Source: a phage. From it: a stretch of DNA of 64,000 nt. The translations under genes and the position numbers were made by a program. Every line of letters begins with the position of its first letter. The stretch's first letter is position 1. The notes under the pieces were generated by a model. It ran no database searches. It was not told the DNA's origin and saw only the letters and a list, made by a program, of their open reading frames with translations. Below are positions 36,804-64,000 of this stretch, one piece after another. Location of the stretch: the sequence record PZ386974.1; one strand, 5' to 3'.

Positions 36804-37361
36804 TTAAAGTTGAAGATACCACCCGTTGTAGTTGCTCTTGCGGACGATTTTCTTTAGGTCTTCATGGTCTCCCACAAACTTTATAGAATAAGAGAAGACG
36901 TCAGGTGAGGTTTCTTTGGCATCTAATATAATAATGCAATCTGCGACTCGATGGTTCAAGAAGGGGCCTATATTGATTCCATTACCACCCGGATAATCAC
37001 CACTGTATCCTGTGGTAACCGAAATCCATTTAGAATCCATCTGATGTGTCTTGACTTCTACACGAATTCCACAATATTTGGGATGGGCTAACACGTCCCA
37101 TGCATACGTGTACGGGTCTTCTACATCTTCAATACCTTTATTAACATATCCGTCTAGCCAATTTGCTACTACATACTCTGCAAAGACCGCAACCTTACAA
37201 CGTCGAACTACATCTTCTTTGTTTTGGTCAGGATTTTGGCTCAGGGAATACCGAGCCGTGTCAGCAATCTTCACCTTCATTTCACTAGTCAAAAACTCAT
37301 TCGACAGGATAAATGTCGGAAGATTCTTCAGTCTCAACAGTCCCAAGTTCGTCTTTACCAT
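36804..37361 (-). CDS. denB: endonuclease IV (DenB)-like
   Basis: Track ORF 36804..37424; ATG at 37361 with SD AGAGG gives 185 aa, the length of T4 DenB; lies next to rIIB as in T4. Confidence 0.5.
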   Translation of the reverse strand: MVKTNLGLLRLKNLPTFILSNEFLTSEMKVKIADTARYSLSQNPDQNKEDVVRRCKVAVFAEYVVANWLDGYVNKGIEDVEDPYTYAWDVLAHPKYCGIRVEVKTHQMDSKWISVTTGYSGDYPGGNGINIGPFLNHRVADCIIILDAKETSPDVFSYSIKFVGDHEDLKKIVRKSNYNGWYLQL

Positions 37362-37584
37362 AGATACCTCTGATGTGTAGTTCGCCAAAATAAATGCGGT
37401 CACCTTCTTCAAGATATTCTGCATCTACAGGCGGAATTTCAATAACAACTTCGTCGCATTCTAACCAGCCGTAGTGTGCATCGCCGGGATGTTTTACCAA
37501 TTTAGCACAATAAACTGATTTACACTTATGATGACCACGAAGACTAGCAATTTTGGATTCTGATACGTCAAATGGATGAATCAT
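37297..37584 (-). CDS. hypothetical protein (96 aa)
   Basis: Track ORF 37297..37635 would span the terminator hairpin; ATG at 37584 lies downstream of it; overlaps the denB start in another frame. Confidence 0.35.
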   Translation of the reverse strand: MIHPFDVSESKIASLRGHHKCKSVYCAKLVKHPGDAHYGWLECDEVVIEIPPVDAEYLEEGDRIYFGELHIRGIYGKDELGTVETEESSDIYPVE

Positions 37585-40795: not shown

Positions 40796-40996
40796 TCACA
40801 AGTTACGTTTAAAAATTTCTGCTACTTCAAGAAGTTCTTCTTTAGTAGCTGTATCGGTTTGTATTTTATATCGAATTTCTTTAAAGCGTTCTTTAAAGGA
40901 CTCTGCTGACTCGATATCAAAAAATCTTTGGATAAGCCGGAATTCCCGGAGCACTGCTTTATCAAAAAGTTCCAAGTCCACGTTATATGTTCTCAT
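40796..40996 (-). CDS. hypothetical protein (66 aa)
   Basis: ORF track; immediately upstream of rIIA. Confidence 0.5.
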   Translation of the reverse strand: MRTYNVDLELFDKAVLREFRLIQRFFDIESAESFKERFKEIRYKIQTDTATKEELLEVAEIFKRNL

Positions 40997-41088
40997 AATA
41001 TTCTCTTCAGTAGATTCCTAGGGCACTATTACTAAAGACCATATAATCTATCATCTTATGTGTAATAGTGCCTCAGGCGATTCAGGAT

Positions 41089-42189
41089 TTACGCTGTGAA
41101 GATTTTATCCCACATCGCAACAACTGCATCTCGATTATACTTCTTCCATACTGCTTCAGCACGTTTAACTCGAGCTTCGTATGTGTCAGTGAATTCTAAT
41201 ACAGCTTTTGTGTAAAGCGCAACTACTTCTTTCTTAGGAGTAGAGGAATCAATTTCTACACGCACAGTATCTGGGTCATATTCGAATGTCGCGTGCGGAT
41301 AATCCTTAAAAACTAACTGGATTACAGGGACACCTTTAGAGATGGCTTCAATAGAACTATTCTCTACCGTACCTGTGTCAGGACACGTATTAATAAGTGC
41401 TTTAGCTGTTTTAAGACGTTCCATAATTTCACTGTGTGGAGCATCAATAATAACAGGATATTTAGCCGGTGGTGCCCATTTACTAGGACAGTATCCTACA
41501 CCATTTTCGCCTAGTGCTTTAATCGCTTCAAGAGCAACATCAGTACGACGCATTTTAGTGTCATAACGTTGTGCACTAATAATCAGATCAGTCGCCGGAA
41601 GAACTTCAGGTTTCTCATTCAAACAAATAACCGGATAATCTTCGGCTTCAAACAACGGATTTGCTCGCCAATAATCATAATCAATTTTGTCAGTCAGACC
41701 CGAAGTCATATAACAATATTTACGTTCAAATTCACGGAAGGCTTTAGTAGGAGCATAACTCTTACCACCATTCTTATGAATTTGAATAGTCTGGTCCCAA
41801 ATTTGAACAATGCCACGAGATACCGGTTCAAATGGTGTTGCCATAAAATTCTTATGAACTTTAGAGAGACCTGCGTCTTTAATTGCCTGAACGGTTAGTT
41901 TGGTCGGTTCCATTGTAACAACGAAATCATACTCATTAATGCCGGCTAGTTCAACAATCTTACGAGCCATAGTATAACTCATACCTAGACTGAATTTAGT
42001 CAGATGACCAACAGGATGATGATTAACTTTCCAATCACCAAATGTGTCATTATCAAAACCGATATAATCAATATCGGCACCGATGGACACAAGATATTTC
42101 AACACATTTAAATGTACTGCTTCAAGACCACCTTGTACACGTTCTGGGTTAAATGGGACTGCGCGAGATGGGATAAACATAACTTTCAT
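41089..42189 (-). CDS. GT-B fold glycosyltransferase (GT4-like)
   Basis: 366 aa; N-terminal MKVMFIP...GGLEAV and C-terminal E-x7-E-type motif TGTVENSSIEAISKGVPVI typical of retaining GT-B enzymes; ATG start. Confidence 0.7.
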   Translation of the reverse strand: MKVMFIPSRAVPFNPERVQGGLEAVHLNVLKYLVSIGADIDYIGFDNDTFGDWKVNHHPVGHLTKFSLGMSYTMARKIVELAGINEYDFVVTMEPTKLTVQAIKDAGLSKVHKNFMATPFEPVSRGIVQIWDQTIQIHKNGGKSYAPTKAFREFERKYCYMTSGLTDKIDYDYWRANPLFEAEDYPVICLNEKPEVLPATDLIISAQRYDTKMRRTDVALEAIKALGENGVGYCPSKWAPPAKYPVIIDAPHSEIMERLKTAKALINTCPDTGTVENSSIEAISKGVPVIQLVFKDYPHATFEYDPDTVRVEIDSSTPKKEVVALYTKAVLEFTDTYEARVKRAEAVWKKYNRDAVVAMWDKIFTA

Positions 42190-42215: not shown

Positions 42216-42233
42216 AAGCTCCCGAAGGAGCTT
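42216..42233 (-). terminator. hairpin AAGCUCC-CGAA-GGAGCUU overlapping the gene 39 stop codon
   Basis: 7-bp stem, UUCG loop on transcript, between gene 39 and the glycosyltransferase gene. Confidence 0.45.
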
Positions 42234-44049
42234 AGGACATCCATTCTTTACGAAGTTCTGAATCATCACCCATCAACATTTCAAAGAGTTCTTTCCAATT
42301 TTCAGGAAGTTTAACTACGTCGTACACAGGGTTCTGAATCATTTCACGATATTCTGACTTTTCAAGGGAGCCTAATCCCTTGATGTATCGAATACTATGC
42401 TTAGGCAGTGTATATTTAACTTCTTCATACTCAGCTACAGTATAAAACCATTTTTGAGTTTTGCCAATTTGTGCAATAATTACAGGTGTTTTAACAAAGC
42501 GAATACGTCCTTGTTCAAACAATTCAGGCCAATTACTAAAGAAAGCAAGCAAAGCTGGATAAATGCTTCCAAGACCGTCATGATCGGCATCAGTCATAAT
42601 TGCAATATTACGATAGTTCGTATTCTCTGCCTTTTCACCAAGAATAAGACCTGTGATAGCACAGATATCAAAGAGCTCTTTGTTCTTCATCATATCAGCA
42701 TATGACATACCCCAGCTATTCATCACCTTACCACGTAATGGGAATCCACCATGTAGTTCACGGTCACGAACATCAATGAGATAACCAATTGCCGAATCAC
42801 CTTCTGTTAAGAACAATGTCGTATCTGCATCTTTACCACATTGGTTAGCTTTAATATGCTTATGAACCTTAGCTTTAGTTGCCTTTTTAGCTGCTTTAGT
42901 TTCTGCAGCCTTTTCTGCCGCCAATTTACGAGCTAATGCTGCTTCAACAATAGGCATAATCAAGGCTTCGTTTTTAAGAAGTGCCTGAGCAATTTTCTTA
43001 GCATCTAATTGGATATGATTACGAATATCACCATATGTTGACGTTAAACGTTCTTTAGTCTGAGAATCAAAACGCATGTTGCTCATGTCTCTAATAAACA
43101 TCAACATTGTGAGACATTCTTTAACACGAGCTTTAGTGACTTCAATACCCTTATATTTCTTTTTAATACCGGGCAAAAGATGTTCGCAGATATCATCCAT
43201 TACACATTCAACATGATGACCACCATTTTTAGTATGGATGTTATTCACATAAGTTAAATGACGGAAGCCATCTGGTGATGTTGTGAATGCTATAGAGACT
43301 TTATCATTTTCTTGAATGATGTTATCTTCGCCAAATTGTTTAGCAAATCGTTTAAAATTACCATCAACCTTTTTACCATTAAATGTGAACTTGATATCAG
43401 GATAAACGACTGCCAACGTTTGAAGTCGGTCTAAAGTAATATCTAAATAAACTTGAGATAAATTATGCTCTTCAAATGAAGAGAAATCAGGAGTGAAGAT
43501 TACTTTAGTGCCTTTACCTTTAGATTTCTTAGAAGACCATGATTTGTTTTCCATTCCGTTTGAACAGTTAACAGTGATTTCATTTTCGCCATCTGACGTG
43601 ATGCCTGTAAACAACGTAGAGAAGATATTAGTTAAACTACTCCCGACGCCGTTCATACCACCAGTCTTGCGTTCAGAGTCATCACCAAAGTTACCACCGG
43701 CCTTTGGAATAGTCCAGGCTGCTACAGGCCCAGGAATTTGTTCACCTGTTTGGTCTGTAACTAAACCTTGAGGAATACCACGTCCGTTATCTTCCACCGA
43801 AACTTGATTATTTTTAATTTGCACATCAATTTTATTTGCAAACTTAAATGATGTACGAATAGCTTCATCAACCGAGTTGTCAATAATCTCATCGATTAAT
43901 TTAACCAGACCAGGAACATATTCAACTTGCTGATATTTACCAAACAAAAAACGCTCATGTGCTTCTTTGGCCGAAGAACCAATATACATACCACTGCGTT
44001 TCTTAATATGTTCTACATCTGACAATACCTTAATTTCATTTTTAATCAT
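42232..44049 (-). CDS. 39: DNA topoisomerase II large subunit gp39 (single ORF covering the T4 gene 39 + gene 60 equivalent)
   Basis: 605 aa uninterrupted; GHKL ATPase (Bergerat) motifs in the N-terminal half and a TOPRIM region at the C-terminus; ATG start. Confidence 0.92.
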   Translation of the reverse strand: MIKNEIKVLSDVEHIKKRSGMYIGSSAKEAHERFLFGKYQQVEYVPGLVKLIDEIIDNSVDEAIRTSFKFANKIDVQIKNNQVSVEDNGRGIPQGLVTDQTGEQIPGPVAAWTIPKAGGNFGDDSERKTGGMNGVGSSLTNIFSTLFTGITSDGENEITVNCSNGMENKSWSSKKSKGKGTKVIFTPDFSSFEEHNLSQVYLDITLDRLQTLAVVYPDIKFTFNGKKVDGNFKRFAKQFGEDNIIQENDKVSIAFTTSPDGFRHLTYVNNIHTKNGGHHVECVMDDICEHLLPGIKKKYKGIEVTKARVKECLTMLMFIRDMSNMRFDSQTKERLTSTYGDIRNHIQLDAKKIAQALLKNEALIMPIVEAALARKLAAEKAAETKAAKKATKAKVHKHIKANQCGKDADTTLFLTEGDSAIGYLIDVRDRELHGGFPLRGKVMNSWGMSYADMMKNKELFDICAITGLILGEKAENTNYRNIAIMTDADHDGLGSIYPALLAFFSNWPELFEQGRIRFVKTPVIIAQIGKTQKWFYTVAEYEEVKYTLPKHSIRYIKGLGSLEKSEYREMIQNPVYDVVKLPENWKELFEMLMGDDSELRKEWMS

Positions 44050-53835: not shown

Positions 53836-54357
53836 TTAGTAACCATTATCCTGGCGTTCAAAGTTGTGTTGGTTTTTCAAGTAGTAAAGTTTAAAGATTT
53901 CTTCAGCAGTAAGACCAAGACCTTGGAACATATTCAGAACAAAGTGGAGGATATCAATCATTTCAAATTTAATTTCAAGCTGGTCTTCAGGAGACAGTTC
54001 ATCGATACGACGATTTCGATATTCAGCATGTTGTGCCTTCCACGGCTTCCATACACTGCTGGCGGCTTTTTCACCATTGCTCATACCACCAAGTGAAGTC
54101 AGCAGTTCACGAAATTCATCATCAATATAATCTTTCTGATTACGCAGCCAATCAACAACATCACCAGCAGTGGCCAATTCATCAGGATGTTTGTTATGTT
54201 CAGGCTTGTCATTTGCCAGACGAACCTGTAAAGATTTCTGCATATCAAGCATTACCTGCAGTGGGTCTTTATCTTCGTGAATCAGAGCATTAAAATAAGC
54301 TTCTTCTGCTTTATCAACACCAGAAATAAGTTGTGAACATTCGTTAAAGTGTGCCAT
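53836..54357 (-). CDS. 56: dCTP pyrophosphatase gp56 (MazG-like)
   Basis: Track start 54372 is TTG; ATG at 54357 with SD AAGGA gives 173 aa MAHFNECSQL...; matches T4 gp56 as recalled. Confidence 0.85.
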   Translation of the reverse strand: MAHFNECSQLISGVDKAEEAYFNALIHEDKDPLQVMLDMQKSLQVRLANDKPEHNKHPDELATAGDVVDWLRNQKDYIDDEFRELLTSLGGMSNGEKAASSVWKPWKAQHAEYRNRRIDELSPEDQLEIKFEMIDILHFVLNMFQGLGLTAEEIFKLYYLKNQHNFERQDNGY

Positions 54358-62224: not shown

Positions 62225-62773
62225 TTAACGAGCCCATTTGATGATTTCTGTAATCAAACCATTACGTTCGCTTGCATTAAATCCTATAACTTTGTTAGCA
62301 CCATCATGATTAAGTAATTGATACGTTTGGATTTTGTTATGAATTGCAAACTCTTCAAAATGTGAAATGACTGTATTAAAACCGAATGAAGACAAAGTAA
62401 TAAGGTCGTCTTCAAAACTTTCAGTCATTTCGTTACGTGTTAAAATAATTGTGAACACATCATGGTTTTGGCAAAGACGAACATAATCCTGTTCATAAAC
62501 ATCAAGAACCGAGTCCGCATCTTGTCGAATACGTCCATAAACCCAGTTACTAATATATCCACGGTCTAACAGATAAATCTTAGTAGGGTCTAAATAATTC
62601 AACATCGTTTCGAAACAGCCAACTTCATTTCGAGACTTAACATCGAAACGTCCATCAACCGTTCGTTTAGGGAAATCAATCTTTACATATCTTTCACTAA
62701 TTTCCATTATGTCATTAATGAAAGTTGTTTTACCAGCATTATCCGGGCCATCTACTAAAATAATTTTAGCCAT
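62225..62773 (-). CDS. P-loop NTPase / nucleotide kinase-like protein (182 aa)
   Basis: Walker A at N-terminus (ILVDGPDNAGKTTF), Walker B-like YLLDRG; ATG start. Confidence 0.55.
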   Translation of the reverse strand: MAKIILVDGPDNAGKTTFINDIMEISERYVKIDFPKRTVDGRFDVKSRNEVGCFETMLNYLDPTKIYLLDRGYISNWVYGRIRQDADSVLDVYEQDYVRLCQNHDVFTIILTRNEMTESFEDDLITLSSFGFNTVISHFEEFAIHNKIQTYQLLNHDGANKVIGFNASERNGLITEIIKWAR

Positions 62774-62774
62774 T

Positions 62775-63674
62775 TTATTCCTCGATTACGACATCTTCGT
62801 ATTTAGGTATATTATACGGCGAAGAAATTAAAGCATTAAAGTAGATGAACTCACCAAGACCTGGATGGAATACTTCTTCAGGATTTTCGAAATATTGAAT
62901 CTTCGGACGTCCTTTAAGAATTTGATAGTACTCAGTTTTAGTTGGTTTAAAAATTCGAATCAGCGCTTCTTCAGGATACTTATTTCTGTCGAAGCTATTA
63001 TTTGGATCGGTTATATAAAGCGGTTGGCCTAATTGAATTGCACATTCAACCACTTGTTCAAAACGATAGCATGGGTCACTAATTCGAAATGGATGAAAAA
63101 TACCATCTAGATGAATAGGAGCCAAATCACCTACAAGACGCTGCATGATGGAAGGACGTATAACTTTCTGCGTTACGATAATCTTATTACCATCTGCACC
63201 TGCGTTAACCAGCACTTCTTTTTGACGTTCATTCAACACAGTAGTTTGAAGTGAACGATTAACAGACAACATGTCGGTTTTTAAGAATTCATCAATATAA
63301 AAACGTGGTTTATTAGGGTCTGCAGTGATATTGAAATTGAATTCTACGTCAAAAGCGCCATCATATCCAGTGATATCTGTGATTAGAAAATCACAATCAT
63401 AATAAGCAATTAATGAATCAACCACAAATTCATTTTCAGACCAGAAATATTTACGAGTGTTATACGCGTTATCTTTATACCATAATGGAACAAACTTAAA
63501 TTCTGGGAAAAGACGTTCACATTCTTTAATATCAGATGCATTACGTGGATATGTAATCACATCGCCTGGATTAGCACGGTGCAAATGAAGTTGGAAGTTG
63601 CCATCCTTAAGGATAGCATACTGTCCAGTTTCATAAGACCGCATACTCAAAATAGGTACGCGGAAAATAGCCAT
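62775..63674 (-). CDS. hypothetical protein (299 aa), possible nucleotide-sugar transferase
   Basis: ORF track; hydrophobic stretch followed by DCD (LIAYYDCDFLITD) resembling a GT-A DxD motif; weak evidence. Confidence 0.5.
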   Translation of the reverse strand: MAIFRVPILSMRSYETGQYAILKDGNFQLHLHRANPGDVITYPRNASDIKECERLFPEFKFVPLWYKDNAYNTRKYFWSENEFVVDSLIAYYDCDFLITDITGYDGAFDVEFNFNITADPNKPRFYIDEFLKTDMLSVNRSLQTTVLNERQKEVLVNAGADGNKIIVTQKVIRPSIMQRLVGDLAPIHLDGIFHPFRISDPCYRFEQVVECAIQLGQPLYITDPNNSFDRNKYPEEALIRIFKPTKTEYYQILKGRPKIQYFENPEEVFHPGLGEFIYFNALISSPYNIPKYEDVVIEE

Positions 63675-64000
63675 TAGTCAAGAAATCCTTTAACATAATC
63701 AAAATCACGTTCAAACACATGGGCACTTACCATGGTATGAGTATAATCACCAACTTCTACACCACATTCGTTAGCGATATAATGAAGTAATTTTCCTTGG
63801 AGATAAAAATCCAACTGCATAACAACAGCACAGTTCTGAGAACGCATATGACAGTGGGTATAAAGCTTACCATCGCGAATATAATAAGTCACTGAGTCAG
63901 TACATGGATATTCAAGCGTTTCGTCCGAATCAAGCAAAGCCTGATCAGAACTTTCTAGAATTTGGAACACAACTCTTCGAGAGTTAGGCTTCTCTTTAAG
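63674..64000 (-). CDS. 42: thymidylate-synthase-family enzyme, gene 42 (dCMP hydroxymethylase)-like, 5' end beyond window
   Basis: Frame open to the right edge (track start is an internal GTG); C-terminal domain with YPCTDSVTYYIRD and MRSQN resembles the catalytic-Cys region of dCMP hydroxymethylase. Confidence 0.5.
   Translation of the reverse strand, partial: LKEKPNSRRVVFQILESSDQALLDSDETLEYPCTDSVTYYIRDGKLYTHCHMRSQNCAVVMQLDFYLQGKLLHYIANECGVEVGDYTHTMVSAHVFERDFDYVKGFLD

Follow-up and report, generated by a model that had tools for sequence, protein, structure and literature searches.

The interval between rIIA.1 and gene 39 in the phage genome studied here raises a question of function: it is occupied by the gene for a putative glycosyltransferase, and one would like to know which sugar this enzyme transfers, and onto what. 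The window, by which we mean the whole 64,000-nucleotide stretch of DNA that was analysed (sequence record PZ386974.1), contains in this interval an ORF of 366 aa which starts with ATG and has the N-terminus MKVMFIPSRAVPFNPERVQGGLEAV. The original prediction had read the ORF as a GT-B enzyme in a slot which in T4 is filled by gene 60 and a homing endonuclease, and had described gene 39 as a single fused ORF. The position of the ORF and the description of its surroundings were upheld: the T4 record has 60, 60.1 and mobA between rIIA.1 and 39, and the gene 39 product of the window spans both the gp39 and the gp60 parts. It matches PHROG 543 over residues 1-605 and PHROG 7229 over residues 452-605, contains the Pfam GyrB, HATPase and Toprim domains and is 95.7% identical to RB69 gp39. 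The focal ORF itself is not a chance frame, as it matches PHROG 8302 end to end, has family members in 212 phage records and has a 98%-identical orthologue which has been crystallised. The features discussed are listed in Table 1.

Table 1. Features of the glycosyltransferase slot and genes of the arabinosylation pathway in the window.
Feature	Coordinates	Strand	Evidence and remarks
rIIA.1	40796..40996	minus	Pfam PF24210 T4_RIIA1, E 2e-30; 100% identity with RB69 rIIA.1
Focal glycosyltransferase gene	41089..42189	minus	366-aa GT-B glycosyltransferase; orthologue of RB69 ORF003c/gp3 and the HY126 glycosyltransferase
Hairpin AAGCTCC-TTCG-GGAGCTT	42216..42233	minus	Terminator-like scan and sequence; overlaps the gene 39 stop codon
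Gene 39	42232..44049	minus	Topoisomerase II large subunit, 605 aa, unsplit; upstream boundary of the slot
gp56 dCTPase	53839..54357	minus	97.7% identity with RB69 gp56; pathway gene in PMC13326640 Table 1
Thymidylate-kinase-like nucleotide kinase (RB69 gp45 orthologue)	62225..62773	minus	98.9% to p045; part of the modification cluster; role from PMC13326640 Table 1
Proposed first (base-proximal, alpha) arabinosyltransferase, gp46:47 orthologue, 299 aa	62775..63674	minus	RB69 p046 and p047, 99-100%
5-hydroxy-dCMP synthase, C-terminal part (RB69 gp48 orthologue)	63674..64000	minus	p048 residues 135-238, 100%

On the coding strand rIIA.1 forms the downstream boundary of the slot, with rIIA and rIIB coming next. 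Upstream, the UUCG-tetraloop hairpin at the end of gene 39 is followed by a T-rich stretch and then by the glycosyltransferase gene's own ribosome-binding site (AAGG, 8 nt before the ATG); the hairpin may act as an attenuator or may stabilise the RNA. Between the glycosyltransferase gene and rIIA.1 is a 92-nt spacer containing an inverted repeat of 11 bp, GGCACTATTAC ... GTAATAGTGCC, whose loop measures approximately 30 nt (about 41017-41068, minus strand), and some public records annotate a terminator in this spacer. Just past rIIB lies a gene for a DenB-like endonuclease IV (36804-37424, minus strand; PHROG 1360, E 2e-88). T4 DenB cuts cytosine-containing DNA, so a gene of this kind suits a phage genome without unmodified cytosine.

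The locus shares 98-99% nucleotide identity with approximately 150 Mosigvirus phages of Escherichia and Shigella, and the window is collinear with positions 1-25823 of RB69 at an identity of 95-98%. The focal glycosyltransferase is 98.9% identical to RB69 ORF003c (RB69p003, NP_861693.1) across all 366 residues, and full-length membership of the family of RB69 gp3 and the HY126 glycosyltransferase is also evident from PHROG 8302, its sole match in PHROGs, which covers residues 1-366 of 366 with an E-value of 8e-223 and is annotated as being of unknown function. One record, that of Shigella phage JK45 (MK962757.1; L004:1501-3104), has a full-length glycosyltransferase gene followed by a 411-nt ORF which repeats part of it, the result of a partial tandem duplication or of faulty assembly; this record is filed under Tequatrovirus, yet its glycosyltransferase locus is Mosigvirus-like.

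That the protein is a glycosyltransferase of the GT-B type is borne out by the structure of its orthologue and by the company which that structure keeps. Two PDB entries, 9iqz and 9ir0, are about 98% identical to the focal protein; they were released on 2025-07-16 under the titles 'phage HY126 glycosyltransferase' and the same 'with UDP', so that nucleotide binding can be read, by proxy, from an entry title. The HY126 enzyme is reportedly the subject of a paper by He et al., Nat Chem Biol 2026, which is said to use an 'Afh' naming scheme. The focal protein has two Rossmann-like alpha/beta domains, a central cleft and a C-terminal helix which crosses back, and its remaining structural neighbours are all GT-B nucleotide-sugar transferases. 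Of the 35 solved structures nearest to it, most are of retaining GT-B enzymes (GT4/GT5/GT20), and the substrates of the closest are lipids, LPS, small thiols, pterins, glycans and other small molecules, not DNA. An AF2 model built on a 6-sequence alignment had a pLDDT of 61, an unreliable N-terminal domain and a TM of 0.70 to the crystal structure, and was superseded by a run on a 12-sequence alignment.

At the level of sequence profiles the family is almost invisible. Pfam returned no families at E<=1 for the focal protein and NCBIfam returned none, there is no precomputed Pfam domain on any of its homologues, and a search of the family profile against PDB sequences gave no chain at E<=10 besides the orthologue. 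Among 1.84 billion cluster representatives, scanned exhaustively with HMMER, only 12 proteins were recovered, which indicates a very small family. Placement by sequence profiles alone therefore fails, and the structure, together with hhalign to a bridging sequence, is needed. The bridge is a borderline relative, P0015, to which the family profile aligns over its full length (hhalign probability 98.2%, E 4e-14), and which itself lies above the Pfam cut-off for Glyco_transf_4 (31.9 vs 28.5 bits) and just below that for Glycos_transf_1 (24.5 vs 26.4). The sole link of the focal glycosyltransferase to CAZy GT4 and the Pfam Glyco_transf_4 and Glycos_transf_1 profiles is thus the indirect one, through P0015; the focal protein itself does not match these profiles.

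The same tools were turned on the proposal that the gene might be a T4 agt or bgt relocated to a new slot. The 12-sequence family profile gave a hhalign probability of 0.3% to each of T4 a-gt and b-gt, figures which come from a shallow profile set against single-sequence targets, and a displaced agt/bgt was rejected on these values together with the structural-neighbour comparison, so that of this part of the original prediction only the shared fold remains. With deeper profiles, Thomas et al. (2018; PMC6024577) obtained a HHpred match of ORF003c to 1XV5 which was weaker than its matches to GT4 enzymes. The focal protein is a GT-B enzyme at the far fringe of the GT4-like group, and not a displaced agt/bgt. 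An origin as a diverged duplicate of the first arabinosyltransferase of the window was likewise rejected (BLASTP E 1.6, hhalign probability 0.1%).

The C-terminal motif, reproduced here as residues 272-290 (TGTVENSSIEAISKGVPVI), had been labelled E-x7-E in the original prediction, a label that needs correcting: the glutamates present are E276 and E281, which form E-x4-E (G273-T-V-E276-N-S-S-I-E281), and the only literal E-x7-E of the protein, at residues 86-94, is in the N-terminal domain and unrelated. Alignment with P0015 places G273 opposite the first Glu of its canonical E-TFGISNF-E, and E281 opposite the second. Throughout the family the position of the first E-x7-E glutamate is thus taken by an invariant glycine, with an invariant glutamate three residues later; among 12 family members of 35-44% identity, G273, T274, E276, S279, E281, A282, G286, P288 and V289 are all invariant, as are G20-G21, Q207-R208-x-D210 and R214. 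The second glutamate and the R...R pair match what we take to be the usual GT4 donor-binding pattern. On family invariance and motif position, residues R208, D210, R214, E276 and E281 are candidate donor-site residues and would be those which contact the donor, and the displaced first carboxylate is, as far as the alignment can tell, a peculiarity of this family.

The chemistry into which such an enzyme might fit has been worked out largely in RB69. Thomas et al. (2018; PMC6024577) reported arabinose in RB69 DNA and, using a custom HMM and HHpred, proposed ORF003c as the arabinosyltransferase; it was the sole convincing GT-B candidate in RB69, and the product was thought to be arabinosyl-hmC. 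Lee et al. (2026; PMC13326640) found instead that RB69 cytosines are 5-hydroxycytosine, not hydroxymethylcytosine, and carry one or two D-arabinofuranoses, the disaccharide being beta-D-Araf-(1->3)-alpha-D-Araf, ether-linked to C5. According to the same study, 5-hydroxy-dCMP is made by gp48, a flavin-dependent thymidylate-synthase homologue; UDP-Araf is made via an arabinose-5-phosphate isomerase, a bifunctional kinase/uridylyltransferase and a phosphatase; and gp46:47 is the first transferase, its split in the RB69 reference being a sequencing error, whilst gp3 is named 'beta-arabinosyltransferase 2', explicitly as a proposal. Lee et al. (PMC13326640) also reported that the mono-arabinosylated phage Thanatos has a single glycosyltransferase, of the gp46:47 type, that in vitro gp76 and gp77 of phage DLP3, used jointly and with UDP-Araf as donor, put a third arabinose on RB69 DNA, and that the individual DLP3 glycosyltransferases are inactive on un-arabinosylated 5hoC DNA. 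In the Mosigvirus NicPhage, which is 98.5% identical to the focal locus, the ratio of mono- to di-arabinosyl-dC is 1:4 (2026 paper), and a secondary source states of another Mosigvirus, Bas46, that deletion of an Aat sensitised the phage to a defence system. In the literature surveyed, which lies outside the two papers where a direct test is most to be expected (He et al., Nat Chem Biol 2026; Mahler et al., Cell Host Microbe 2025), no direct assay of RB69 gp3, the HY126 glycosyltransferase or the focal protein was found.

In the window the glycosyltransferase gene is accompanied by much of this pathway, namely the synthase (in part), the first transferase, the kinase and the dCTPase (Table 1). 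The synthase gene extends beyond the window end, and the UDP-arabinose genes would lie just past it, judging from the 95-98% collinearity with RB69. The orthologue of RB69 ORF046c and ORF047c is one uninterrupted ORF, and the intactness of this 299-aa protein lends independent weight to the published view that a sequencing error divided the gene in the RB69 reference. The substrate chemistry of this clade is that of arabinosyl-5-hydroxycytosine and not that of glycosyl-hmC.

The distribution of the two transferase families bears on what the focal enzyme does. By tblastn, the focal family is found in 212 phage records, which comprise one-copy Mosigviruses, 55 records of Acinetobacter T4-like phages and one Tegunavirus record; in the Acinetobacter phages, two copies were present in each of ten records listed. 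The Tegunavirus-labelled record holds a distant member (<60% identity), and is the only match outside the Mosigvirus and Acinetobacter phages. For the first-transferase family the count is 349 records, including phages of Klebsiella, Enterobacter, Serratia, Proteus, Yersinia, Erwinia and Kosakonia, and in these phages, as well as in approximately 40 further Escherichia phages, tblastn found no member of the focal family. The two families keep step where both occur, with 156 close Mosigvirus matches for the focal transferase vs 154 for the first, and 55 vs 57 Acinetobacter records; the phyletic comparison as a whole used genus-level counts and sampled rows rather than a full per-genome table. 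When the number of focal-family copies is set against published sugar counts, phages with none carry one sugar (Thanatos), those with one copy carry two (RB69, NicPhage) and that with two carries three (DLP3), and it thus appears that the copy number of this family sets the length of the arabinose chain, from one to three sugars.

Gene order points the same way. In Acinetobacter phage Maestro two paralogues, 078 and 077, which are 44% and 42% identical to the focal glycosyltransferase, lie inside the arabinosylation operon, in the order isomerase, bifunctional kinase/uridylyltransferase, phosphatase, 5hodCMP synthase, first glycosyltransferase, kinase, 078, 077; DLP3 gp77 and gp76 correspond to 078 and 077 by gene order alone. 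Taken together, the dose pattern and the operon association fit a chain-extending role, and disfavour both a first-step role and one away from DNA.

The contexts of the distant members are a separate matter. Two of these are on contigs too short to inform, and the third, P0009 (39% identical; L006:9001-10140, Logan SRR34261890_53613), lies within a virion-structural block made up of Peptidase_M23, a gp13-like protein, a 1622-aa protein, DPBB_1, the glycosyltransferase and DUF4815, with a terminase farther on and no arabinosylation genes within 9 kb. This branch might have another acceptor, or the gene might merely have been scattered. For the assignment of the Mosigvirus gene these contexts are neutral, as they neither support nor undermine it.

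We therefore consider it likely that the focal glycosyltransferase is the chain-extending DNA arabinosyltransferase of the Mosigviruses, and that it makes beta-D-Araf-(1->3)-alpha-D-Araf-5-hydroxy-dC. The original prediction had offered a DNA-modifying transferase as one option, and this survives in altered form: the phyletic and operon evidence favours DNA arabinosylation, whilst the agt/bgt origin attached to it has fallen away. In this pathway gp56 destroys dCTP, which leaves the modified cytosine nucleotide as the sole form to enter DNA; gp48 hydroxylates dCMP to 5-hydroxy-dCMP, which is then phosphorylated and incorporated instead of C; and gp46:47 would attach alpha-D-arabinofuranose to the 5-oxygen. 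The C-terminal Rossmann domain of the focal enzyme would bind UDP-D-arabinofuranose, its N-terminal domain would present O3 of the base-proximal alpha-arabinose on duplex DNA, and the enzyme, probably acting alone, would move a second arabinofuranose to the O3 of the first, on double-stranded DNA and after replication. The bigger glycan may then screen the phage genome more effectively, by steric hindrance, from defences that target DNA.

The linkages have a consequence for mechanism. In the Mosigviruses the first transferase makes a linkage that is alpha to the base and the second one that is beta to the first sugar, and since the linkages are opposite and presumably drawn from one pool of UDP-D-Araf, the pair has to consist of one retaining and one inverting enzyme; the pathway literature surveyed, outside which He et al. 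2026 falls, does not state in which anomeric form the UDP-D-Araf donor occurs. It is tempting to take the focal enzyme as the inverting one, though its neighbours are mostly retaining, and to see in the change at G273/E276 the signature of a GT4-like scaffold adapted to inverting furanosyl transfer with a sugar on DNA as acceptor; however, we regard this suggestion as tentative and, on balance, doubtful.

Three other readings of the focal enzyme were weighed. The proposal of 2018 would make it the first, base-proximal arabinosyltransferase, acting on the modified cytosine itself, and it is true that the protein is genuinely of the GT-B type, with an orthologue whose structure has been solved with UDP, and that ORF003c was the one convincing GT-B candidate of RB69 at that time (Thomas et al., 2018; PMC6024577). 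However, gp46:47, which is intact in the window, was then overlooked because the sequencing error had split it; the focal family is absent from many phages that have both the 5hodCMP synthase cluster and a transferase of the gp46:47 type; the one glycosyltransferase of mono-arabinosylated Thanatos is of this type; the copies of the focal family (0, 1 or 2) track the number of extra sugars; and the DLP3 enzymes, taken singly, do not act on un-arabinosylated 5hoC DNA. A first-step role is therefore unlikely. The behaviour of DLP3 raises a different thought, that the focal enzyme extends the chain only in a complex, with the first transferase or some other phage factor, and is inactive by itself: gp76 and gp77 are inactive singly and active together, they belong to a cluster that in Maestro holds both focal-family paralogues, and the chains of PDB 9iqz run at least to H, making eight or more, which is compatible with oligomerisation. 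The number of chains in a crystal is, however, no evidence of a functional complex, the single family copy of the Mosigviruses leaves the enzyme without a paralogous partner, and the first transferase is unrelated in sequence, and we hold an obligate complex to be very unlikely.

Chain extension by the focal enzyme on DNA must also be set against the idea that its acceptor is not DNA at all but LPS, some other glycan of the envelope or a protein of phage or host, which the original prediction had named as its second option. Lipids, LPS, small thiols, pterins and glycans are the substrates of the nearest structural neighbours, the distant member P0009 sits among virion genes, and the net charge of the protein is slightly acidic; its pI of 6.3 is not basic but, as a crude indicator of DNA binding, uninformative. 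Against this, the distribution of the family is nested inside that of the DNA-arabinosylating phages, its members in the Acinetobacter phages are within the arabinosylation operon, homologues lengthen the sugar chain on DNA in vitro, and the disaccharide of RB69 and NicPhage needs a second transferase, for which no other candidate has been reported. An acceptor other than DNA is, on this evidence, hardly credible for the Mosigvirus enzyme.

The gene, its structure and its proposed role have already been published (2018, 2025 and 2026), and the value of the present locus is mainly that a glycosyltransferase which escapes Pfam and NCBIfam could be recognised from the bare sequence. In RB69-type T-even phages every cytosine is replaced by 5-hydroxycytosine with one or two arabinofuranoses, a modification which blocks many restriction enzymes and CRISPR effectors. 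The gene is thus a useful marker for the state of phage DNA modification, and predicts sensitivity to modification-dependent defences (GmrSD/BrxU) and behaviour in sequencing and in phage therapy.

Compared with known systems, the nearest likeness is that to RB69 gp3, which is of equal length, occupies the same rIIA.1/39 slot, has the same accompanying pathway genes and differs by no more than 4 amino acids; to judge from their sequences, the two are for all practical purposes one gene. Nor is there any difference of substance from the HY126 glycosyltransferase (9iqz, apo; 9ir0, UDP complex). The paralogue pair of Maestro and DLP3 belongs to the same family, with 42-44% full-length identity in the case of Maestro and all motif residues invariant. 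However, the Acinetobacter-phage pair is present as tandem copies in the operon, whereas the Mosigviruses have one copy 20 kb away, and the DLP3 enzymes form an obligate pair responsible for the third sugar (beta-1,5), the second sugar (beta-1,3) being the one proposed for the Mosigvirus enzyme. The bacterial retaining GT4-type enzymes (BshA, PimA/PimB', WaaG/WaaB, MshA, tll1591 and sucrose-phosphate synthase) share 10-15% identity with the focal protein, from which they differ in that its proposed activity involves a furanose pentose as donor, a DNA-linked acceptor and a beta-linked product, and for these reasons a retaining mechanism is not assured for it. T4 alpha-glucosyltransferase (GT72, 1xv5/1y6f) and beta-glucosyltransferase (GT63) are likewise phage GT-B enzymes which transfer from a UDP-sugar onto a modified cytosine in DNA, and they have in common with the focal enzyme their action after replication and their purpose, escape from host nucleases; the T4 enzymes, however, work with 5-hydroxymethylcytosine and UDP-glucose, whereas in the RB69 clade, according to the literature, the base is 5-hydroxycytosine and the sugar D-arabinofuranose.
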